A stretch of 24,146 nt of DNA. It comes from a virus (lineage: Duplodnaviria; Heunggongvirae; Uroviricota; Caudoviricetes). Made by a program: the position numbers and the translations under genes. The notes under the pieces were generated by a model. The model ran no database searches and was not told the DNA's origin. It was given only the letters and a program-made list of their open reading frames with translations. Numbering within the stretch: position 1 is the first letter of the stretch; the number at the start of each line of letters is the position of its first letter. Positions 1-23,859 of this stretch are shown here, one piece after another. Location: the IMG/VR virus record IMGVR_UViG_2698536506_000006, one strand, 5' to 3'.

Positions 1-1032
1 TCAAAAACTTGCTATTGATGTTGGTAGTGTTGCCAGCGGATTAAACCGTAATGCAGTTTCCAGGTGATCCGGTGCCAGATGTGCGTAACGCATAGTCATT
101 TTTATATCGTGATGCCCTAGAATTTTTTGTAAGGCCAGGATATTTCCACCCGACATCATGAAGTGCGCCGCAAACGTATGGCGCAGAACGTGTGTCAGTT
201 GACCGCGAGGGAGCACGATAGACGTTTTTTCCATCACGGATAAAAATTGAAAATAGCAGTCTGTAAAGAAATTGAACCCATCAAGCGCCATGATCTCTTC
301 GTAAAGCTCTTTACTGATAGGGATGCTTCTGTTTTTCTTCCCCTTCGTTCTTACAAAGGTAATTCGGTATTTGGTCACCTGTGAGCGGGTAAGATTTACG
401 GCTTCTCGCCAGCGTGCGCCTGTGCTTAAGCATATTTTGACTACCAGAGCCAGAATTGGGTCCTGACGTTTGCAATCAGCCAGCAGTTCAACAATCTGCT
501 CATGGGTAAGCCATGCCATCTCTTTTTCTGCGATGGTGAATTTTCGCATGTTCTCCAGTGGGTTTGGATACGACCATTCGCCCAGGCGGGATAGTTCGCT
601 AAAAACACTACTTAGATAGCTTTGCTCCAGGTTAATGGTGACCGGGCTTGCTCCTTTCTTCCATTTCTCGCTGAAGTAGATCTCTCCTGTCAGGCGTTTA
701 TCTCGATAGTGGGCAAACATTTTAGAGGTGAGATCGGTTGCAAGGGGATTGCCCAGAGCGTCAACTATCAACAGCAATTTGTCATAGACATGCTGCCCAG
801 CTGTCAGAGATTTACCATGTAGTTTGAACCATAGCTCAACCACGTCTTTCAGTGTTCGACGATCCACTGATTCACCCAGCCAGGGCTTTGCTTCGGTTTC
901 TTCCATCGTGTGACGCTCAAAAGCCAGAGCTTCACCTTTGGTGGCGAATTGTTTACGCACACGACGCCCACTACGTCCGGCGGGGTAACATTCGCAAAGC
1001 CATTTTCCTGTGGTGAGTTTTCGTACTGCCAT
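1..1032 (-). CDS. int: Tyrosine integrase (P2/186 Int family)
   Basis: ORF ends with stop at 1-3. Start chosen at ATG 1032-1030 (MAVRKLTTGKW...), preceded by GGAGGG with about 8 nt spacing. C-terminal region carries tyrosine-recombinase-like motifs (HVLRHTFA...MMSGGNILALQKILGHHDIKMTMRYAHL). The ORF track extends the frame to 1110. Confidence 0.9.
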   Translation of the reverse strand: MAVRKLTTGKWLCECYPAGRSGRRVRKQFATKGEALAFERHTMEETEAKPWLGESVDRRTLKDVVELWFKLHGKSLTAGQHVYDKLLLIVDALGNPLATDLTSKMFAHYRDKRLTGEIYFSEKWKKGASPVTINLEQSYLSSVFSELSRLGEWSYPNPLENMRKFTIAEKEMAWLTHEQIVELLADCKRQDPILALVVKICLSTGARWREAVNLTRSQVTKYRITFVRTKGKKNRSIPISKELYEEIMALDGFNFFTDCYFQFLSVMEKTSIVLPRGQLTHVLRHTFAAHFMMSGGNILALQKILGHHDIKMTMRYAHLAPDHLETALRFNPLATLPTSIASF

Positions 1033-1218
1033 AAAAAATGCCCTCCAGTGGAGAGCATTTTTACTGTATGTATAACCAGTGTCAATGTATGAAATCCTGC
1101 GACCATACATCTCACTGAAGCCATAATGAAGTTGGCTATTTTTTGCTATGTGAGTATGTGACTTTTGCGGTTAGCCTGCGGCTCATTGTTATATTAGGCG
1201 CAGATATAAAAGCAAAAT

Positions 1219-1410
1219 TTATCGCGAGTTTTTAGTACAGATTTTTTTTGATTTACTAATAGTTCCATCATTGCAAACGAACTTTCCATCGGAGGTACAG
1301 TGAGAGACACCTCCTTTTTTCCCAGAACAAGGATAATTTTTAGCATAGGTAGTTAGTGGGTTTAATAACAAAGAGCATGATAAAACCACAAAAAATACCT
1401 TACCAAGCAT
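1219..1410 (-). CDS. Small Cys-rich secreted protein or lipoprotein (moron), 63 aa
   Basis: Strong RBS (GGGAGGA, about 5 nt spacer) before the ATG. N-terminal hydrophobic signal-like segment [16 protein letters not shown]. Five Cys in the predicted mature part. AT-rich relative to neighbours. Lies 15 bp downstream of cI on the same strand. Confidence 0.55.
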
Positions 1411-1425
1411 AGTTTCCTCCCGGTA

Positions 1426-2048: not shown

Positions 2049-2120
2049 TATGGTGTTCACAAAATACAAACGATCCGTATTCGTCCTGATTAATCATCAT
2101 TAAACGAGGAATGTTGCATC

Positions 2121-2342
2121 ATGAGACCTAACATTTCAATCACTCTTACCACGCCTCATGTGACTATTGAACGCTATAGCGAGCTGACAGGGCTATCCAT
2201 CGATACCATCAATGACATGTTGGCTGATGGACGCCTTATCCGTCACCGTCTGCGCAAAGATAAAAAACGCGAAAAAGTGATGATCAACATAGCAGCAATG
2301 ACCGTTGATGCGCTTTCAGAATGCAATCTAAACCTTAATTAG
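2121..2342 (+). CDS. apl: Apl/Cox-like excisionase and transcriptional regulator
   Basis: 73-aa ORF, first gene transcribed away from cI. Position and size match the Apl/Cox slot of 186/P2. Confidence 0.65.
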
Positions 2343-2374: not shown

Positions 2375-2884
2375 ATGTTTGATTACCAAGTTTCCAAACA
2401 TCCACATTTTGATGAAGCCTGTCGTGCATTCGCATTGCGCCACAACCTGGTGCAACTGGCAGAACGTGCTGGCATGAATGTGCAGATTCTGCGGAACAAG
2501 CTGAACCCAGCTCAACCTCATTTATTAACCGCACCAGAAATCTGGCTGCTTACCGATCTGACTGAAGATTCAACGCTGGTAGATGGTTTTCTGGCTCAGA
2601 TTCACTGCCTGCCATGCGTACCGATTAATGAGGTGGCAAAAGAGAAACTGCCACATTACGTCATGAGTGCAACCGCAGAGATCGGGCGTGTTGCTGCAGG
2701 TGCGGTATCTGGCGATGTAAAAACCAGTGCAGGTCGTCGTGATGCTATCAGCAGCATTAACTCTGTAACACGACTGATGGCGTTGGCTGCTGTTTCATTG
2801 CAGGCCCGTTTACAGGCTAACCCTGCGATGGCGAGTGCAGTTGATACCGTGACTGGCCTCGGTGCTTCATTCGGTTTGCTGTGA
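2375..2884 (+). CDS. cII: CII-like lysogeny establishment regulator (186 CII type)
   Basis: ATG at 2375 preceded by CAGAGG. 169 codons, the size I recall for 186 CII. Positioned directly after apl. Confidence 0.7.
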
Positions 2885-2891
2885 GGTGCTT

Positions 2892-3188
2892 ATGCTGACG
2901 AAAGAACCATCATTTGCATCGCTGCTGGTAAAGCAAAGTCCGGCAATGCACTACGGTCACGGCTGGATCATGGGTGAGAATGGAAAACGCTGGCATCCAT
3001 GTCATTCACAAGATGAATTGCTGTCTGAATTGACCACGAGGAAACGGAGAAAGTCAAAATGTATGCAGCGGAAAGTGAAGTGGTTTATCAGTTTCGTTAC
3101 AGAGGGGAGAGTTATTCAGTACCTGAAGATGATTTGCTCTGTTGTTATCCGTCGTTGTCGGGCGATGGCAGTTACTTTTTCACGCTAA
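2892..3188 (+). CDS. Hypothetical early protein (uncertain; overlaps the next ORF)
   Basis: ATG at 2892 preceded by GAGGTG. The frame stays open to 3188 but the C-terminal part overlaps 3059-3283 in another frame and looks less protein-like. Confidence 0.3.
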   Translation: MLTKEPSFASLLVKQSPAMHYGHGWIMGENGKRWHPCHSQDELLSELTTRKRRKSKCMQRKVKWFISFVTEGRVIQYLKMICSVVIRRCRAMAVTFSR

Positions 3189-8297: not shown

Positions 8298-8450
8298 GCT
8301 CTTTAGCGTTAGGGAACCATTGCGTTCTAGCCGGGCGATAAGCCAGGCTCTAATTTATTGCTCAGTTTAGGGTTGCGAAAGCGACGAATTCGTCGCTTTC
8401 GCTGTCTTTAGTGAAGAGCTCGGCCCGCGCAAGCGGGCCTCACAAGCGGA
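8298..8450 (+). ncRNA. Candidate retron msr/msd non-coding RNA (boundaries approximate)
   Basis: Non-coding stretch immediately upstream of a retron-type RT. Contains a perfect 28-nt palindrome (8375-8402) and a GC hairpin with GCAA loop (8422-8439). Possible promoter TTGCTA (8263-8268), 17-nt spacer, TAGTAT (8286-8291). a1/a2 repeats were not resolved by eye. Confidence 0.35.
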
Positions 8451-9392
8451 ATGTTTATGGAAATTTTATCGGCTGTTAGCAAAGAACTTGGAGTAAACGT
8501 TAACGAGCTGAGGCGGTTATCGAGTGTTGCGCCTAAAAAATATAAAGTCTACACAATTCCTAAACGACAAAGTGGATTCAGGCTTATTGCTCAACCAACG
8601 AGTGAGATAAAGCGAATTCAGCGTGAGGTTGTGAAAATTTTGGCTTCCAAGCTCATCGTGCACGATGCAGCGAAAGCTTATAAAGTTTCTATAGGAATTA
8701 AGGACAATGCCAAAATCCATATGGCAAACTCCTATCTTTTAAAAATGGATTTTCAGAATTTCTTCAATAAAATTAAACCGGCTCTTTTATTTGATAAACT
8801 TCGCTCTCAAGGGGTTGTTTTGTCAGGTGAGGATAAGGAGTTTTTAGAAGGGATTCTTTTCTGGAAACCAGGAAAAAAAAGAAGTATCACTCTCGTGTTG
8901 AGCGTTGGGGCGCCATCCTCACCTTTTGTTAGTAATTTTGTAATGTATGATTTTGATAATTATATAAACAATTGGTGCTCTGTTAGGAATATTTCATATT
9001 CAAGGTATGCTGATGATATTACATTTTCTACAGATGAGAAGAATATACTTTTTGAGGTCCCGAAAGTAGTAAGGTTTGCATTATCATTATGTGCTAAAGG
9101 TATATCTTTAAATGAATCTAAAACTGTATTCACGTCTAAAGCTCATAATAGACATGTGACAGGTGTGACATTAACAGTTGATGGGGAGCTTTCGCTCGGT
9201 AGGCAAAAGAAGAGAATGATTTCTTCTCTGCTGCATAAATATACACTAGGCTTACTGGCTAAAGAGGATGTTATAAGCCTTAAGGGCTTTGTTGGACATG
9301 CTTTATATATCGAGCCTAAATTTATTGCTAGAATGAAAATTAAATATGGGAAAGAAGTAATACATGCGCTTTTTTCTGAGGAGGGGATGTGA
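8451..9392 (+). CDS. Retron-type reverse transcriptase
   Basis: RT motifs: GAPSSPFVSN (motif B-like), RYADDITFS (YADD catalytic motif) and the retron-characteristic VTG motif (NRHVTGVTLTVDG). AT-rich. Alternative start at ATG 8457. Confidence 0.85.
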   Translation: MFMEILSAVSKELGVNVNELRRLSSVAPKKYKVYTIPKRQSGFRLIAQPTSEIKRIQREVVKILASKLIVHDAAKAYKVSIGIKDNAKIHMANSYLLKMDFQNFFNKIKPALLFDKLRSQGVVLSGEDKEFLEGILFWKPGKKRSITLVLSVGAPSSPFVSNFVMYDFDNYINNWCSVRNISYSRYADDITFSTDEKNILFEVPKVVRFALSLCAKGISLNESKTVFTSKAHNRHVTGVTLTVDGELSLGRQKKRMISSLLHKYTLGLLAKEDVISLKGFVGHALYIEPKFIARMKIKYGKEVIHALFSEEGM

Positions 9393-11044
9393 ACTCAAAG
9401 TATACTAAATCACCAAATGACATTCGTACATTATTGCAGTCTTATGTAAATAAAACTGAAGATGGTTTAGAATTCAGTAAAGAGAACATTCCTGAAGAGG
9501 TATCTTCGTTATATAAGGAAATTGAAGATGCACCATTTCTTATAAATAAAGTCGCCATCTCAGACTATAAAAGAGTCAGGGATCTTTTTGTTTCGATCGA
9601 CAAAAAACTAACAGTGTTTGTTGGTGATAATGGTTACGGTAAAACCACCATTCTTGAAGCATTATTTATTGCTTTAAGTTGGTTTAGAGCAAATGTTCAA
9701 AAAGAAGATAAAAGCGGTTTTCATATAAAAGATGGTGATATTAACAATCATAATGATGTCAATTATGCTGCAATAACTGCGCAGTTTAAACTTAAAAAAA
9801 TAACGTCAAATATTTTAGTTACACGTGTTAAAGATGGAGTATCACAAAAAAGAAATAATGAGTTGCTTTCTATAAAAGAGATGGCGTCATTCTTTCGTGT
9901 TGTGAATTCATATTATGAAGATGTAAGCCTTCCGGTTCTTGCATATTACTCTGTATCAAGATCTTCAAATGGTGCAGGCATAGATAATAAAAGAAATGTT
10001 AATAATTCTGTGCGTCGATGGACTAAGCTTGATGCTTATGAAGATATAGAGTTTGATCGCCGTGACTTCGGTGAGTTTTTAAATTGGTTCATATTTGTTA
10101 ATAATAAGGCATTGTCTGAGGAGTCCTTGATACCAGAAAAACAAAGAGATCAACTTGTTATTGATATCTCAAAGCTTAAGGTATCTTTGGAGGTTTTGAA
10201 ATCTTTCAGTGATGTTGATAGAAGAACATTAATAGATATAGAAACACAAATTGCTAATAAAGAGTTGATTCTTAATACGTTACCGTCTACACCAAATGGT
10301 TTAAGTCGTTCAAAAGATATTGTTGCTAATGTTAAAAGGGCAATAATTAATTTCCTTCCTGAAATTAGCTCTGTTGAACTTCAATATACTGAAAATGAAG
10401 TTCGTTTAGTTTTAGCAAAAGATGATTTACTATTAGATGCCCAGCAACTCTCTCAAGGGGAGAAAACTATACTTACATTAGTGGGGGATTTAACAAGACG
10501 CTTGGTGTTGCTGAATCCTAAGTTAAATAATCCACTTCAAGGGAAAGGTATAGTATTAATTGATGAAGTTGATCTTCATTTGCACCCAAGCTGGCAGCAA
10601 AACATTATTGAGAAATTGCAGCATACATTTCCTAACGTACAATTCATAATTACCACTCATAGCCCTCAAATTGTATCGACAGTTCCAAGTAAATGCTTGC
10701 GCATCCTTGAGGAAATAAAAAACCCTTCGACAGGCATGAAGGAATTACGTGTGCTTTTACCATCATCTCAAACAAAAGGTACTAAGAATTCGTACGCTTT
10801 GCTTTATGGGATGAAAACAGATCCTGTACCTAATGTAAAAGAAGTCGCATGGCTGAGCACTTATAAGAAATTTATTGAAAACAGGCAGCAGGATTCGGAG
10901 GAAGCCATAATGATAAGGAAAAAGTTAGACAAGCATTATGGAATTGATCACCCATTATTACTTGAGTGTGATGGTATAATTCGTGTATTAAAGCTAAAAG
11001 ACAAAGTGCGGGGTGAGTCTGGCAATAAGGAATCTAAACAATGA
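9389..11044 (+). CDS. Retron-associated ATPase (PtuA/Septu-like, ABC/OLD-type)
   Basis: Walker A GDNGYGKTT, Walker B VLIDEVDLHLH, H-loop-like ITTHSPQ. GTG start overlapping the RT stop (ATGTGA), preceded by GAGGAGGGG. Confidence 0.8.
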   Translation: MNSKYTKSPNDIRTLLQSYVNKTEDGLEFSKENIPEEVSSLYKEIEDAPFLINKVAISDYKRVRDLFVSIDKKLTVFVGDNGYGKTTILEALFIALSWFRANVQKEDKSGFHIKDGDINNHNDVNYAAITAQFKLKKITSNILVTRVKDGVSQKRNNELLSIKEMASFFRVVNSYYEDVSLPVLAYYSVSRSSNGAGIDNKRNVNNSVRRWTKLDAYEDIEFDRRDFGEFLNWFIFVNNKALSEESLIPEKQRDQLVIDISKLKVSLEVLKSFSDVDRRTLIDIETQIANKELILNTLPSTPNGLSRSKDIVANVKRAIINFLPEISSVELQYTENEVRLVLAKDDLLLDAQQLSQGEKTILTLVGDLTRRLVLLNPKLNNPLQGKGIVLIDEVDLHLHPSWQQNIIEKLQHTFPNVQFIITTHSPQIVSTVPSKCLRILEEIKNPSTGMKELRVLLPSSQTKGTKNSYALLYGMKTDPVPNVKEVAWLSTYKKFIENRQQDSEEAIMIRKKLDKHYGIDHPLLLECDGIIRVLKLKDKVRGESGNKESKQ

Positions 11045-11709
11045 AATTCCTTGCTAGAAATCCCATTGGTCCAGGTGTTTTAGCCGAGTTTGACTACAAT
11101 ATTCATGACTGGAATGCTTTTAAACGGCGACATAAACAATTAGTCTGGGTCGGTTTAGTTGAAATGCAAGGGAAGAGATGTGCGTATTGTGAGCGGAAAA
11201 TAGATATTCACAATAGTGATGATAAGCATATCGAGCATTTTTTGCGTAGAAGCCAGCATAGGCATTTAACATTTGAATGGTCAAACTTGTTCGGCTCTTG
11301 TGCTGAAAATAATCACTGCGGTTTTTACAAAGATGAACAGAGCTATCAGGAGCAAGACCTAATCAAGGCCGATAATGATGACCCCACACATTTTTTCCAT
11401 TTCGCTATTAATGGAAATATGGATATTCGTCCGGGGTTATCGCGAAACGATGAGCGAAGAGCTGAGGTTACTATAAGGGTTTTTAACCTGAATGGTGAAA
11501 AGGGCGGCGTGAAAACTGAGCGCATCAATGCAATATCAGAAACATGGTCATTGATAGAGAGATTTGTTTCTACAGCTGAAGAGTTCATCGAAGAGGGACT
11601 TTATGATGATAGTGTCCGTAACGAACTTCGAGACGAGTATTATAAAGAAATAGACCCCAGACCATTCTCTACTGCGTTGCGTGATGTTTTTGATACGATG
11701 CTTCCTTAA
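11041..11709 (+). CDS. Retron-associated HNH endonuclease (PtuB-like)
   Basis: HNH-type motif CAYCE...DDKHIEHF...N...SCAENNHC. Start overlaps the ATPase stop (ATGA). Confidence 0.8.
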   Translation: MKFLARNPIGPGVLAEFDYNIHDWNAFKRRHKQLVWVGLVEMQGKRCAYCERKIDIHNSDDKHIEHFLRRSQHRHLTFEWSNLFGSCAENNHCGFYKDEQSYQEQDLIKADNDDPTHFFHFAINGNMDIRPGLSRNDERRAEVTIRVFNLNGEKGGVKTERINAISETWSLIERFVSTAEEFIEEGLYDDSVRNELRDEYYKEIDPRPFSTALRDVFDTMLP

Positions 11710-16586: not shown

Positions 16587-19403
16587 ATGAGCCTGAGTCC
16601 CGCACGGCAGCATCGCCTGCGCGTTCAGGCTGAACAGGCCGCCCGCGAGGGCGGCAGTGTTCGCCACGCATCGGGCTATGACCTGATGCTGCTGCAACTG
16701 GCGGAAGACCGCCGCCGTCTCAAGGGCGTTCAGTCCACGGTCAAAAAAGCGGAAATCAAGGTGGAGCTGCTGCCGAAGTACGCCGCCTGGGCAGAGGGTG
16801 TCCTGGCTGCCGGAGGCGCTCAACAGGATGACGTGCTGATGTACGTGATGCTGTGGCGCATTGATGCCGGAGATTATGCCGGGGCGCTGGAGATCGGGCG
16901 TCACGCCCTGCGTCATGGCTGGGTGATGCCGTTGGGTAACCGCAACGTGCAGACCGTGCTGGCAGAGGAAATGGCAGACGCGGCGCAGAGCGCAATGCTT
17001 GCCGCCACCGGCTTTGATGCTGATCTGTTGCTGCAGACGCTGGAGCTGACAGACGGTCTGGATATGCCGGACCAGTCACGGGCACGTCTGCATAAAGCGA
17101 TTGGCGCTGTCTGGACCGACGGCATTGGTAATACGTCAGGCGTCATTCCCGGCAAAACCATTACGGAGCGACAGGCAGCAGAAGGGCTGATCTCCAACGT
17201 GCTGCGTGTCGAGCGGGCGCTGGAAAGGTGTGTGAAGCAACAGCCGCCGCAGAAGGTGTATGACGCTGCGGTGTCGTTTGCCTTCAACGTGGGAACGGGC
17301 AATGCCTGCAGTTCCACGCTGGTGAAATTACTCAATCAGCGGCGCTGGGCAGATGCGTGCCGACAGTTGCCGCGCTGGGTTTATGTGAAAGGTGTTTTTA
17401 ATCAGGGGCTGGATAACAGGCCAACCGCCGCGCAGGCAAAGTTATTCAGTCAGGCCAAAACACGAGTACAGGAACTTCAGCAGACTTATAACGGCTTGTT
17501 GGGGGCGGTCCAGAGACAACGTCAGGCACTTAAAGAATCAGGGATTGATACCAGACAACTCAGTAGTGCCCAGCGAGAACTTAAAAAAAATGCTGAAGAA
17601 ACAAGGCAGGCACTGGAGGGCCAGCAAAAAGCACTTAAACGTCTGGGTGAACAACAGGCACGGATGAACGCTGCCAGAGAACAATACTCAAGACGGCTTG
17701 AAGTGCGCGATCGCATCGCAGGAGCCGGAGCCACTACCACGGCTGCAGGGCTGGCAATGGGTGCGCCAGTGATGGCGGCAGTAAAAAGCTATACCAGCAT
17801 GGAAGATGCCATGAAAGGTGTGGCAAAGCAGGTCAATGGTCTGCGTGACGATAATGGCAACCGCACTGCACGTTTTTATGAAATGCAGGATGCCATCAAG
17901 GCTGCCAGCGAACAGTTGCCGATGGAAAACGGTGCGGTGGACTTCGCTGCACTGGTTGAAGGTGGTGCGCGCATGAACGTCGCAAACCCTGACGACAGCT
18001 GGAAAGACCAGAAACGTGACCTGCTGGCCTTCGCCAGTACGGCAGCAAAGGCGGCAACAGCCTTTGAGCTGCCAGCGGATGAACTGTCAGAAAGTCTGGG
18101 GAAAATCGCCCAGCTCTACAAAATACCTACGGCAGCAGTAACTCGAACCAGCAGCGCGTTGTCCTGGCTGGCTGGCGCACCACTGGCACTGCTGCGACGC
18201 GGGCTTGCTTCATCGGGCAACGCAGCGGGTTTACTTACTGCGCCGTTGTCGTCTTTGCGCCGCACGGCATCACTGACGGGGAATGTCCTGAAAACTGTAG
18301 CAGGTGTGCCGGTTGCACTGTTGCGGTCTGGATTATCCGGTTTACGTGCTGTTGCTGTGATGTTTATGAATCCACTGGCAGCACTACGCGGTGGACTGGC
18401 TGCCGCAGGCGCGGTGCTGCGAGTGCTGGCATCCGGTCCGCTGGCGATGCTGCGCGTTGCTCTGTATGCCGTATCTGGTCTGTTAGGTGCTCTGCTCAGT
18501 CCGATAGGTCTTGTGGTTACTGCACTGGCAGGCGTGGCGCTGGTTGTCTGGAAATACTGGCAACCCATCACCGCATTTCTCGGTGGCGTGGTGGAAGGAT
18601 TCAAAGCGGCGGCAGGTCCCATCAGTGCTGCATTCGAACCACTTAAGCCTGTGTTTCAGTGGATTGGCGACAAAGTGCAGGCGCTGTGGGGCTGGTTTAC
18701 TGATCTGCTGACGCCTGTTAAGTCGACCTCTGCCGAACTGCAGAGCGCAGCGGCAATGGGGCGACGATTCGGGGAGGCACTGGCGGAAGGGCTGAATATG
18801 GTCATGCATCCGCTGGACTCCCTGAAATCCGGCGTTTCCTGGTTGCTGGAGAAACTCGGCATTGTCAGTAAAGAGGCTGCAAAGGCGAAACTGCCGGAAA
18901 GCGTGACGCGTCAGCAACCTGCGACGGTGAATGCAGACGGTAAAGTGATGATGCCATCAGGTGGTTTTCCATCATGGGGATATGGTTTTGCGGGGATGTA
19001 TGACAGCGGTGGGTATATCCCGCGCGGGCAGTTTGGCATTGTCGGTGAAAACGGGCCTGAAATTGTCAACGGCCCGGCAAACGTGACCAGCCGGAGAAAT
19101 ACAGCTGCACTGGCTGCCGTTGTTGCCGGAATGATGGGTGTTGCTGCCGCGCCAGTAGAGCTTCCACCGTTGCACCCTTTGGCATTTCCCGCGAAAGGCG
19201 GTGAAGCGATGGTGAGTCGCGCAGCCACTGTGCCGCCCGTTCAACGGATTGAGGCACCGACGCAGATCATCATCCAGACGCAGCCAGGACAAAGTGCGCA
19301 GGATATTGCGCGGGAGGTGGCACGCCAGCTTGATGAACGTGAACGCAGGCTGAAGGCAAAAGCCAGGAGTAACTACAGCGATCAGGGGGGATACGACGCA
19401 TGA
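16587..19403 (+). CDS. Chimeric 938-aa ORF: gpM-like N-terminus (about aa 1-170), lysozyme-like C-terminal segment (about aa 175-280), then tail tape-measure protein gpT-like (about aa 290-938)
   Basis: N-terminus has gpM-like features (...AQQDDVLMYVMLWRIDAGDYAGALEIGRHALRHG...). Middle has GH24 phage-lysozyme C-terminal motifs (VYDAAVSFAFNVGTGNACSSTLVKLLNQRRWADACRQLPRWVY). The remainder is coiled-coil plus Ala/Leu/Gly-rich hydrophobic repeats typical of tape-measure proteins, ending just before gpU. Junctions approximately at nt 17080-17110 and 17400-17455. Confidence 0.7.
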   Translation: MSLSPARQHRLRVQAEQAAREGGSVRHASGYDLMLLQLAEDRRRLKGVQSTVKKAEIKVELLPKYAAWAEGVLAAGGAQQDDVLMYVMLWRIDAGDYAGALEIGRHALRHGWVMPLGNRNVQTVLAEEMADAAQSAMLAATGFDADLLLQTLELTDGLDMPDQSRARLHKAIGAVWTDGIGNTSGVIPGKTITERQAAEGLISNVLRVERALERCVKQQPPQKVYDAAVSFAFNVGTGNACSSTLVKLLNQRRWADACRQLPRWVYVKGVFNQGLDNRPTAAQAKLFSQAKTRVQELQQTYNGLLGAVQRQRQALKESGIDTRQLSSAQRELKKNAEETRQALEGQQKALKRLGEQQARMNAAREQYSRRLEVRDRIAGAGATTTAAGLAMGAPVMAAVKSYTSMEDAMKGVAKQVNGLRDDNGNRTARFYEMQDAIKAASEQLPMENGAVDFAALVEGGARMNVANPDDSWKDQKRDLLAFASTAAKAATAFELPADELSESLGKIAQLYKIPTAAVTRTSSALSWLAGAPLALLRRGLASSGNAAGLLTAPLSSLRRTASLTGNVLKTVAGVPVALLRSGLSGLRAVAVMFMNPLAALRGGLAAAGAVLRVLASGPLAMLRVALYAVSGLLGALLSPIGLVVTALAGVALVVWKYWQPITAFLGGVVEGFKAAAGPISAAFEPLKPVFQWIGDKVQALWGWFTDLLTPVKSTSAELQSAAAMGRRFGEALAEGLNMVMHPLDSLKSGVSWLLEKLGIVSKEAAKAKLPESVTRQQPATVNADGKVMMPSGGFPSWGYGFAGMYDSGGYIPRGQFGIVGENGPEIVNGPANVTSRRNTAALAAVVAGMMGVAAAPVELPPLHPLAFPAKGGEAMVSRAATVPPVQRIEAPTQIIIQTQPGQSAQDIAREVARQLDERERRLKAKARSNYSDQGGYDA

Positions 19404-21291: not shown

Positions 21292-21370
21292 CGCTGCCGC
21301 CATTTTGTCGCCATCGTTAAAAAACAGTGCTTCTAACATCATGATTTTAAACAGCTTAAATTTCAGGCAA

Positions 21371-21414
21371 CAAAAAACCCATCAACCTTGAACCGAAATG
21401 GCGGGGTTGATGGG
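21371..21414 (-). terminator. Rho-independent terminator, probably for ybjL
   Basis: 10-bp stem CCCATCAACC / GGTTGATGGG (21378-21387 and 21405-21414); on the minus strand it is followed by TTTTTTG. About 110 nt downstream of the ybjL stop. Confidence 0.45.
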
Positions 21415-21526
21415 CTCCACAAAATGGGGACATCAAAGAAAAGCAGTGGCACTAATTAAGACTGATGCCCTGCGGAAAAGTTCTGCGGTTGTGCAAAAAA
21501 ATTTCATTTTCAGGGCAACTTCAGTT

Positions 21527-23212
21527 TTATCCTAATCCTGGCCATACCATGACGATGATTGTCCCTGCCAGCGTCAGCAGGACGTTGGCGATTGCATAGG
21601 TGCCCGCATAGCCCAGCGCCGGGATGTTACTGCGAGCTGTATCACTGATGATCTCCATTGCCGGCGCGCAGGTACGTGCGCCCATCATTGCGCCGAACAA
21701 CAGCGCGCGGTTCATTCGCAATACATAAGCACCGAACAAGAAACAGATAACCACGGGCACCAGACTGACAATCAATCCGGCAATCAACATCTGACCGCCA
21801 ATCGCGCCCAGGCCGTTATTAATACCGCTACCGGCGCTCAGACCAACGCCTGCCATAAACACCATCAAGCCGAACTCTTTCACCATGCTTAATGCACCCT
21901 GCGGAATGTAACCGAAGGTCGGGTGGTTAGCACGCATAAAGCCCAGCATAATTCCGGCGAATAACAACCCGGCAGCGTTCCCCATGCCGAAACTGAATGT
22001 GCTGAACTGGAAGGTGATCATCCCGATCATCAGCCCAATAACAAAGAAGGCGCAGAATGCCAGCAGGTCAGTGACCTGGCTGTGAATCGAGATAAAGCCG
22101 ATGCGATCGGCGATGGTTTTTACGCGGCGGGCATCGCCGCTGACTTGTAAAACGTCACCTTTGTTAAGCACGACGTTGTCATCTATCGGCATCTCAATCT
22201 GGCTACGAATGACGCGGTTAAGGAAGCAACCGTGATCGGTCAACTTCAGTTGTGCGAGACGTTTACCTACAGCGTTATGGTTTTTAACGACCACTTCTTC
22301 AGTGACGATACGCATGTCGAGAAGGTCACGATCGAAAACTTCTTTACCGTTACGGAAGCTGGGATCGAGTCGGGCATGGGCGTCGGGATAGCCTACCAAC
22401 GCTATTTCATCGCCCATTTGTAGCACGGCATCACCGTCTGGATTTGCCAGAATCCCGTTACGTCGAATACGTTCAATGTAGCAGCCGGTTTGTCGATAAA
22501 TACCCAGTTCACGCAGATTTTTGCCGTCGGTCCAGGCCACCAGTTCCGGGCCGACGCGATAGGCGCGGATCACCGGTAAATAAACCTTACGGTTGGCATC
22601 AGTGTCCAGGCCACGTTCGCGGGCGATTTGCTGGGCGCTGGTCTGTAAGTCCTGATGCTGCAATTTCGGCAAGTAACGCGCACCAACAATCAAACTCACC
22701 AGACCGATTAAATAGGTTAAGGCATACCCGAGGCTCAGATTATCCAGTGCCAGTGAGAGCTGCCTGCTTTCCATGCCGGAATGACGCAGTGTATCGCCAG
22801 CACCGACCAGAACCGGTGTCGACGTCATAGAGCCTGCTAACATACCGGCCGTCAGGCCAATATCCCAGCCAAACAGCTTACCTAACCCTAAGGCGATCAC
22901 CAGCGCACTGCCAACCATCACCAGTGCTAACATTAGGTAATTTTTCCCATCGCGAAAAAAAATGGAAAAAAAGTTCGGTCCGGCTTCGACCCCGACGCAG
23001 AAAATAAACAGCATAAAGCCAAGATTAAGCGCATCGGTGTTAATGCTGAAATGTTGTTGGCCTAATAACAGCGATACGACTAAAACGCCAATGGAATTAC
23101 CCAGTTGGATCGAACCAAGTCGTAACTTTCCGAGACATAGCCCAAGCGCGAGGACCACAAATAATAACAGAATGTAATTCCCATTTAACAATTCGGCGAC
23201 GTTTATATTCAC
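21527..23212 (-). CDS. ybjL: Putative transport protein YbjL (AAE-family transporter)
   Basis: 561 aa, multi-pass membrane protein recognised as E. coli YbjL by sequence and by the neighbouring ybjM and grxA. Confidence 0.9.
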
Positions 23213-23481: not shown

Positions 23482-23859
23482 GTGAAACATAAACAACGTT
23501 GGGCGGGGGCAATCTGCTGTTTTGTCCTCTTCATTGTGGTGTGCCTTTTTCTGGCGACGCACATGAAAGGCGCTTTTCGGGCTGCCGGGCATCCTGAAAT
23601 CGGCTTGCTATTTTTCATTCTTCCTGGAGCAGTCGCCAGCTTCTTTTCACAGCGTAGAGAAGTCCTGAAACCTCTGTTTGGCGCAATGCTGGCGGCACCC
23701 TGTTCGATGCTCATTATGCGGCTGTTTTTTTCACCGACGCGCTCATTCTGGCAAGAGCTGGCATGGTTACTAAGCGCGGTGTTCTGGTGTGCGCTGGGGG
23801 CACTGTGTTTCTTATTTATCAGTAGTTTGTTTAAACCACAGCACAGAAAAAATCAGTAA
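23482..23859 (+). CDS. ybjM: Inner membrane protein YbjM
   Basis: 125-aa hydrophobic protein between ybjL and grxA, the conserved E. coli gene order. Confidence 0.8.
   Translation: MKHKQRWAGAICCFVLFIVVCLFLATHMKGAFRAAGHPEIGLLFFILPGAVASFFSQRREVLKPLFGAMLAAPCSMLIMRLFFSPTRSFWQELAWLLSAVFWCALGALCFLFISSLFKPQHRKNQ

Follow-up and report, generated by a model that had tools for sequence, protein, structure and literature searches.

A YdcA-family cargo gene between cI and int in a defective 186/P2-like Escherichia coli prophage

We analysed a stretch of 24,146 nucleotides from the IMG/VR virus record IMGVR_UViG_2698536506_000006, hereafter called the window, and followed up a small open reading frame (ORF) that lies between the repressor gene cI and the integrase gene int. 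The host element is a defective 186/P2-like E. coli prophage of ~21 kb (about 1–21000). By its conservation the ORF is a real gene, and its sequence identifies the product as a member of the YdcA family (PF27300/NF007463); relative to phage 186 the gene is an insertion. Our preferred explanation, which we hold to be somewhat probable as a whole, is that of a cargo gene behind cI whose product is made in lysogens, exported and polyanion-binding, to the benefit of the lysogen.

The gene and the family of its product

The features of the gene and its predicted product are as follows.

1219..1410, minus strand: YdcA-family gene (ORF list, NF007463, phrog_6000, PF27300 on homologues, RefSeq annotation)
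1421..1416, minus strand: Shine-Dalgarno sequence GGGAGG, 5 nt ahead of the ATG of the YdcA-type ORF (direct reading of the sequence)
1342..1410, minus strand: predicted Sec signal peptide, residues 1–23, with cleavage at TYA/K (sequence rules and homologue alignment)
1222..1341, minus strand: predicted mature domain, 40 amino acids, 4.27 kDa (alignment, charge, AlphaFold2 and codon comparison)

In the ORF list of the window, the ORF runs from 1410 to 1219 with 63 codons and a stop, and its product has five Cys residues at positions 12, 28, 38, 46 and 58. The TAA stop codon of cI occupies 1428–1426 and the ORF starts 15 nt further on; the gap reads TACCGGGAGGAAACT and is followed by the ATG. 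The original prediction, made from the letters alone, had described a 63-residue ORF with a strong ribosome-binding site (RBS), a hydrophobic N-terminus and five Cys residues 15 nt past cI, all of which can be seen in the sequence. It had also placed the ORF on the strand of cI and int, and all three are indeed on the minus strand. Its description of the ORF as AT-rich relative to its neighbours is correct with respect to int (34.4% versus 47.3% GC) and incorrect with respect to the adjoining C-terminal half of cI (32.6%). Since this half of cI is similarly AT-rich, base composition alone is no mark of a foreign origin for the ORF.

The family assignment is carried by profile matches. The NCBIfam model NF007463 (PRK10040.1-2) recognizes residues 5–63 with 116.1 bits (cutoff 93, E 4.2e-34), and phrog_6000, labelled in its database as of unknown function, matches with an E value of 4.6e-34. 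A scan with the local Pfam library returned a noise match only, because PF27300 is newer than that copy of Pfam; the family was found via NCBIfam, PHROGs and precomputed Pfam labels, and the PF27300 (YdcA) label is attached to 59 of the 64 homologues in one homologue set and to nearly all homologues overall. The window protein matches the four-Cys family pattern, C-x9/10-C-x6/7-C-x11-C plus GG, DG and S.S, and in the family C28, C38, C46, C58, G33, G34, D48, G49, S52 and S54 are invariant or near-invariant. In all sampled E. coli genomes that carry the gene, RefSeq lists it as a CDS named 'YdcA family protein' or 'hypothetical protein'.

We compared the window protein with YdcA of E. coli K-12 (b1419; PF27300, NF007462–NF007464/PRK10040). 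Both consist of a signal peptide and ~35 residues of the form PCSGxKGG..C...F.C.DG..S.SK..C, and a periplasmic location is predicted for both. However, the window protein belongs to the.1-2 subfamily and scores 68 bits against the K-12 model NF007462, under its cutoff of 118. The genetic settings also differ: K-12 ydcA is chromosomal and adjoins rydC, whereas the copy in the window is carried by a prophage as cargo of a lysogenic operon. The genes called 'ydcA' in Neisseria, Bacillus and plasmid papers are unrelated and were rejected.

The gene is common. A 231-nt stretch that includes the ORF is found, at a coverage of at least 80%, in 626 of 5,426 complete E. coli genomes (~11%), and the carriers include the E. 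coli B derivatives Nico21(DE3), T7 Express and NEB Express. In BL21 and T7 Express the gene is 99.6% identical to the window copy, and the window shows 100% identity to E. coli AREA_497 across 1.1 kb. Relatives lie on 493 contigs in the IMG/VR scan, of which the 80 loci listed are near-identical and measure prevalence, not diversity. The YdcA family comprises 465 clusters at 50% identity and 918 at 90%, mostly with a signal peptide and a single domain and in some cases with tandems of two or three, and homologues occur in Haemophilus, Moraxella, Acinetobacter and Pseudomonas phages. In a megablast search of phage records only the int-proximal 91 nt were matched; therefore, the exact prophage type is not among the deposited phage genomes.

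Codon comparison points to distinct constraints on the two parts of the gene. Between the window and strain 214-4 (90% identical), the mature part has one non-synonymous and 10 synonymous changes, corresponding to a non-synonymous divergence (dN) of 0.011, a synonymous divergence (dS) of 0.54 and a dN/dS of ~0.02. Between the window and the related locus L007, the mature part has three non-synonymous and 17 synonymous changes (dN 0.03), whereas the signal peptide is nearly wholly replaced (dN 0.79) and the neighbouring cI has a dN of 0.21, so that the mature YdcA sequence is better conserved than the adjoining repressor. In 30 aligned homologues K32, G33, G34, C38, F44, C46, D48, G49, S52, S54 and K55 of the mature part are invariant, and C28 and C58 are kept in more than 90%. 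These patterns indicate very strong purifying selection on the mature part and a drifting signal peptide, which is the codon signature of a secreted protein. The shortness and AT-richness of the ORF might suggest a chance reading frame, or a mere spacer between cI and int; with a family hidden Markov model E value of ~1e-34, a dN/dS of ~0.02 and hundreds of homologues sharing invariant residues, that reading is refuted and retains practically no probability.

Predicted export and the mature peptide

The leader of the window protein contains Lys4, a hydrophobic core (residues 5–16), Pro18, Thr at −3 and Ala at −1. In the 30 aligned homologues hydrophobicity alone is kept over the first 20–25 residues, and the leader ends in a small residue, as in TYA/K in the window and SFA/K, SYA/R and AQA/A in other members. 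We applied a signal-peptidase-I pattern, a hydrophobic core plus a small residue 3–6 positions before the first domain Cys, to the 275 family members with an N-terminal domain; 270 of them fit, and three are lipobox-like. The AlphaFold2 model shows a leader helix at residues 3–15 and a β-hairpin core with pLDDT values of 86–92, and the same elements appear, at lower confidence, in a further model made from the mature residues by themselves. With good support from these comparisons, we infer export through Sec and cleavage by signal peptidase I behind Ala23. The predicted mature peptide of 40 residues (4.27 kDa) has nine Lys or Arg residues against two Asp residues, for a net charge of +7, and four Cys residues (C-x9-C-x7-C-x11-C). 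The product would thus be a soluble periplasmic mini-protein. Two disulfides are expected in it, because the periplasm is oxidising and the homologous lobes of the Legionella protein Dis2, discussed below, are disulfide-bonded. The small secreted Cys-rich protein that had been proposed for this ORF agrees with the predicted signal-peptidase-I leader and the four Cys residues of the mature part.

The possible lipobox at VLSC (residues 9–12), also part of the original prediction, does not hold. A lipidated Cys would lie 15–35 residues from the N-terminus and close the hydrophobic core; Cys12, fewer than 15 residues from the N-terminus, comes too early, and the hydrophobic residues extend past it to residue 16. 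It is also unconserved, the orthologues having C, F, G, S, T, I or V at this position. The bacteriophage proteins phi80 Cor and T5 Llp are receptor-blocking membrane-anchored lipoproteins, and a protein of that kind could be envisaged here from the loose likeness of VLSC to a lipobox and from the UniRef name 'Lipoprotein' on one homologue. Given the early and replaceable Cys12, the lipobox-like motif in only three of the 275 members and a leader without any Cys in the very homologue so named, we consider a membrane-anchored lipoprotein very improbable. The UniRef names 'Lipoprotein' and 'Conjugal transfer protein' are automatic labels and were set aside as evidence.

The lysogenic operon and its cargo slot

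The regulatory and neighbouring features are listed below.

2001 (or 1995) down to 1426, minus strand: cI repressor, 186 type (Pfam Phage_CI_repr 2.8e-33, Phage_CI_C 2.4e-28)
1032 down to 1, minus strand: integrase, start MAVRKLTTGKW (Pfam Int_N and Phage_integrase; the RefSeq start is equivalent to window 1032)
1092..1425, strand unspecified: exchangeable cargo segment, from cI to the conserved int-proximal region (comparison with relatives)
2139..2111, minus strand: candidate pL promoter, TTGAAA-17 nt-CAACAT (relaxed scan, 8/12 matches, weak consensus)
1062..1034, minus strand: terminator-like hairpin with a 13-bp stem, a 3-nt loop and a U-run, ending 2 nt before the int ATG
2121–2342, plus strand: apl/cox-like gene
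2369 or 2375 to 2884, plus strand: cII

In phage 186, cI and int both end at 22433 and thus abut, whereas 393 nt separate them in the window. Comparison of this interval across related prophages, which had been suggested with the original prediction, reveals a swap site. Klebsiella phage 4LV2017 matches window 1000–1091, the int-proximal 91 nt, at 98.9% identity and then diverges to a 349-residue gene, and E. coli phage vB_EcoM-813R9 has a 558-residue ATPase in its cI–int interval. E. coli Ec1117 matches the window from 1385 rightwards; behind its cI (L005, ~3000–3040) only the first nine ydcA codons (MLGKAFVVV*) are left with a degenerate RBS remnant, and next come another CI-like gene and a KAP NTPase. 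Ec1117 thus represents a cargo replacement whose junction falls within the codons for the signal peptide. A diverged YdcA gene (62–70% identity) and then a KAP NTPase are present in further prophages of Escherichia and Klebsiella, and in Hafnia prophages the order is cI, a gene for a 143-residue protein of unknown function, YdcA and int. Haemophilus phages HP2 and S2 have an unannotated 60-residue homologue followed by orf1 and int, and the ATG of the HP2 homologue overlaps the cI stop codon: ATGTAATG. The abutment of cI and int in 186, the other cargo in relatives and the HP2 homologue together support the description of the gene as cargo in the lysogenic operon.

The position of the candidate pL is the same as that of the annotated 186 promoter: 5 nt separate the end of the −10 element from the apl ATG on the opposite strand, and the −35 element lies at apl +13..+18. 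In the phage 186 record, pL is annotated as the driver of the 'lysogenic operon'. A consensus scan of the interval between cI and the ORF found no terminator and no promoter. We infer with good support from this arrangement that the ydcA copy is co-transcribed with cI from the lysogenic promoter, and co-transcription with cI would mean that the YdcA-type protein is made continuously in lysogens. The insertion in the lysogenic cI–int unit, as first proposed, is supported by the 186 junction, the other genes in relatives, the 186-like pL geometry and the uninterrupted passage from cI to the ORF; the moron-like placement for expression in lysogens is likewise well supported by synteny in Klebsiella, Hafnia and Haemophilus P2-family prophages.

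Downstream of the ORF, the 186-nt spacer (1033–1218, minus strand) has a predicted RNA fold of −51.4 kcal/mol (z = −4.2). The consensus terminator scan missed the hairpin before int, which is visible by folding only. The int Shine-Dalgarno sequence GGAGG sits in its 3′ arm, and a promoter-like sequence, TTGACA-17 nt-AAAAAT (1085..1057), overlaps its 5′ arm. Counterparts are found in two related loci (L007, 5588–5611; L006, 5324–5349), and the stems in relatives, GTCCTCA/TGAGGAC and GCCCTC/GAGGGC, are each self-complementary and followed by a T-run; the automatic hairpin alignment is out of register between the stem types, and its pair counts are weak evidence. Read-through from pL into int is probably attenuated by this hairpin. 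Given this conserved hairpin before int, the main lysogenic message may be cI–ydcA and not cI–ydcA–int, and the hairpin may discriminate read-through from int-specific transcripts.

Genes of the YdcA family turn up repeatedly at accessory sites in many temperate phages, also outside the P2 type. In Acinetobacter prophages the gene lies between the tail tube and tape-measure genes, beside HicAB or SocA; in Citrobacter lambdoid prophages between replication genes and rusA; in a Chitiniphilus P2-like element after HicAB; and in Moraxella phages among structural genes. Cargo hotspots have been described for K139-like Vibrio phages in the cI–int interval (PMC9122126) and for P2-like prophages between integrase and primase (PMC13586616). 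The cI–int interval of the window is an exchangeable slot of the same kind as these and as the old/tin site between gpA and gpQ, with the differences that the YdcA gene matches no recognised defence system in PADLOC and that it often coexists with another cargo gene rather than replacing one.

The closest positional likeness is to Glo of Vibrio phage K139. In that P2-family phage the gene for Glo lies between cI and int and belongs to the lysogenic transcript from PL; its product is small, periplasmic and annotated as involved in phage exclusion (PMC4870250). Glo has 137 residues and is not Cys-knotted, unlike the window protein; BLASTP between the two gave E = 0.17, which indicates no homology, and no Vibrio phage was among the tblastn matches. 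A superinfection-exclusion role for the window protein is plausible by analogy with Glo.

The prophage as a whole is defective. An ORF for a 938-residue chimera (16587–19403, plus strand) joins small-terminase and phage-lysozyme domains to ~650 residues without a Pfam match and is followed by homologues of the tail genes gpU and gpD; between the chimera and these homologues most head-completion, lysis, baseplate and tail-fibre genes are apparently gone, and the cI–ydcA–int module is intact despite the defect. A complete type I-A retron (8298–11709, plus strand) is flanked by replication gene A and the portal gene, a site that is the known old/tin (gpA–gpQ) defence hotspot of P2-like phages. 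It consists of an msr RNA (8298–8366; Rfam RF00170, 55 bits), a reverse transcriptase (8451–9392), a PtuA-like ATPase (9389–11044) and a PtuB-like HNH protein (11041–11709). The host flank contains the RybB small RNA (21369–21447, minus strand; Rfam 105 bits), a YbjL-type transporter with Asp-Al_Ex and TrkA_C domains (21527–23212, minus strand) and YbjM (23482–23859, plus strand). Since int lies beside rcdA in related genomes and rybB is at the far end, the prophage occupies the rcdA–rybB interval, and rybB may be the location of the attachment site.

Possible function of the YdcA domain

Leads to function come from longer family members. From the 150 best representatives of the family we took the 20 longest for a Pfam scan, in which the only significant extra domains are nucleases: SNase (P0122 and P0227), Endonuclease_NS (P0172, P0194 and P0220) and the PLD-type domain PLDc_2 (P0217). 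These are three unrelated folds, and in each case the order is signal peptide, N-terminal YdcA domain and nuclease. All 120 best relatives of one fusion (P0326–P0444), from Methylobacter and other Methylococcales, carry PF27300 together with PF01223; therefore, the fusion architecture is real and common. A profile search of a 5.8-billion-protein set with a 42-residue profile listed single-domain members only, so the fusion figures are those of the other searches. In the Methylobacter 'endonuclease G'-type DNA/RNA non-specific endonucleases the YdcA domain stands directly behind the signal peptide; the window protein is this module alone, with no catalytic domain. On a plasmid of Citrobacter sp. 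TSA-1 (L021, 4926–5327), a 133-residue protein with an N-terminal YdcA domain is encoded inside a type VI secretion cluster and adjoins a membrane-anchored GIY-YIG nuclease family protein. Some homologues of ~100–150 residues (P0056, P0057, P0060, P0062, P0099 and P0126) have an extra Cys-rich C-terminal motif, C.C....C.GPRGG.YC....G.K.Y, which has a weak likeness to the PBCV basic adaptor domain (E 0.006).

The only solved YdcA relative is Dis2 (Lpg0823) of Legionella pneumophila (PDB 7MUC/7MUD), found with phmmer (3.1e-5) and by profile (5.4e-5), with two repeats aligned; it is also the top Foldseek match, a weak one (E 0.58). By these alignments Dis2 (7MUC chain AN) consists of two YdcA-type domains in tandem and so joins a family that is distributed across Proteobacteria and their phages. 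Its authors described it as Legionella-specific and without structural relatives, and its deletion as nearly without phenotype. It has two lobes with five disulfides, and its place in the Dot/Icm cap is close to the outer membrane. Dis2 is a two-lobe tandem in a type IV secretion system (T4SS) cap, whereas the window protein consists of one free domain from a prophage, and the window contains no T4SS or other secretion-system genes. A PDB sequence search also returned plant Pin-II proteinase inhibitors (E 0.2–2); they were rejected, as the match is not significant, their domains have eight Cys residues each and the reactive loop lies outside the alignment.

The core domain is basic throughout the family, with a mean net charge of +3.3 and 203 of 213 domains positive. 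The simplest reading of the domain is that of a small extracytoplasmic module for nucleic acid or another polyanion. In the mechanism that we propose, the ydcA copy would be made together with cI in lysogens, the precursor would be exported by Sec, and signal peptidase I would release a soluble, basic, disulfide-stapled peptide of 40 residues into the periplasm. This peptide would bind a polyanion, most likely DNA, outside the cytoplasm, and the binding would hinder foreign DNA from entering, by superinfection exclusion or at DNA uptake, or protect the lysogen envelope in some other way. Of this mechanism the first steps are well supported, whereas the binding of a polyanion and the interference with incoming DNA or protection of the envelope are a weakly supported proposal. 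K139 Glo, as a positional precedent, speaks for this last part, as do periplasmic or secreted DNases borne on mobile genetic elements, one of them prophage-borne, that inhibit transformation (PMC12378983).

Several observations weigh against this explanation. The pL match is weak, and leader cleavage and disulfides are predictions from sequence rules alone. A module that tethers proteins to the envelope would fit the nuclease fusions equally well, and Dis2 makes protein contacts near the outer membrane, with DotC, DotK and DotD, rather than binding DNA. Fold searches gave nothing significant, a PADLOC-DB 2.0 scan of the YdcA-type protein found no families at E ≤ 0.01, and in the literature on the YdcA family, including b1419, PF27300 and PRK10040, we found no functional study. 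The chromosomal K-12 paralogue is linked to acid and organic-acid tolerance and not to phages (PMC7642389).

The last point leads to the most substantial rival, in which the protein is a host-fitness (lysogenic-conversion) factor without an anti-phage role that helps the envelope in acid or organic-acid stress, so that lysogens are favoured in the gut. Deletion of ydcA in E. coli W causes sensitivity to 300 mM 3-hydroxypropionate, and the gene is reported to be induced at pH 5 under YdcI (PMC7642389). The intactness of ydcA under purifying selection in a defective prophage also suggests a benefit to the host. However, the phenotype comes from a paralogue ~75% identical at the DNA level over a short stretch, no known mechanism stands behind it, and the rival explains neither the nuclease fusions nor the repeated adjacency of the family to toxin–antitoxin and defence-type prophage cargo; we therefore think it unlikely, though to be taken seriously. 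The contacts of Dis2 suggest instead an adaptor for envelope-spanning machinery, a protein-binding knot that docks on outer-membrane lipoproteins or secretin-type complexes and blocks a phage receptor or entry. Dis2 as the sole solved relative and the UniRef label 'Conjugal transfer protein' on the E. coli protein favour such an adaptor, to which we give little credence: the label is automatic, the window is without secretion-system genes, Dis2 is a five-disulfide tandem whose loss has almost no effect, and the nuclease fusions are left unexplained.

A bolder form of the polyanion-binding explanation, and one that we regard as improbable, is that the YdcA domain is a previously unrecognised disulfide-stapled extracytoplasmic DNA-binding module of ~35 residues and that temperate phages of many lineages carry it as a free periplasmic 'DNA trap' produced from the repressor operon. 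If this were true, secreted nucleases of three unrelated folds would use the domain to hold their substrate, and Legionella would have taken up the same module, as Dis2, into a T4SS that translocates DNA and proteins. The trap would exclude superinfecting genomes or block uptake by transformation or conjugation, and the prophage would be shielded from competitors and curing.

In summary, much of the result is ordinary: the gene is an annotated member of an uncharacterised family in a described type of prophage cargo slot. What may be new is that YdcA genes are repeatedly linked to cI, that the domain is fused to nucleases, that Dis2 is related to the family and that the gene had been missed in HP2; the nuclease link, the Dis2 homology and the unannotated HP2 copy are absent from the literature searched. 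Taken together, these three make the function testable by simple experiments. The remaining interest lies in how widespread the family is, with the gene in ~11% of complete E. coli genomes including BL21-type strains, and in the repeated positioning of YdcA genes by phages for expression in lysogens.

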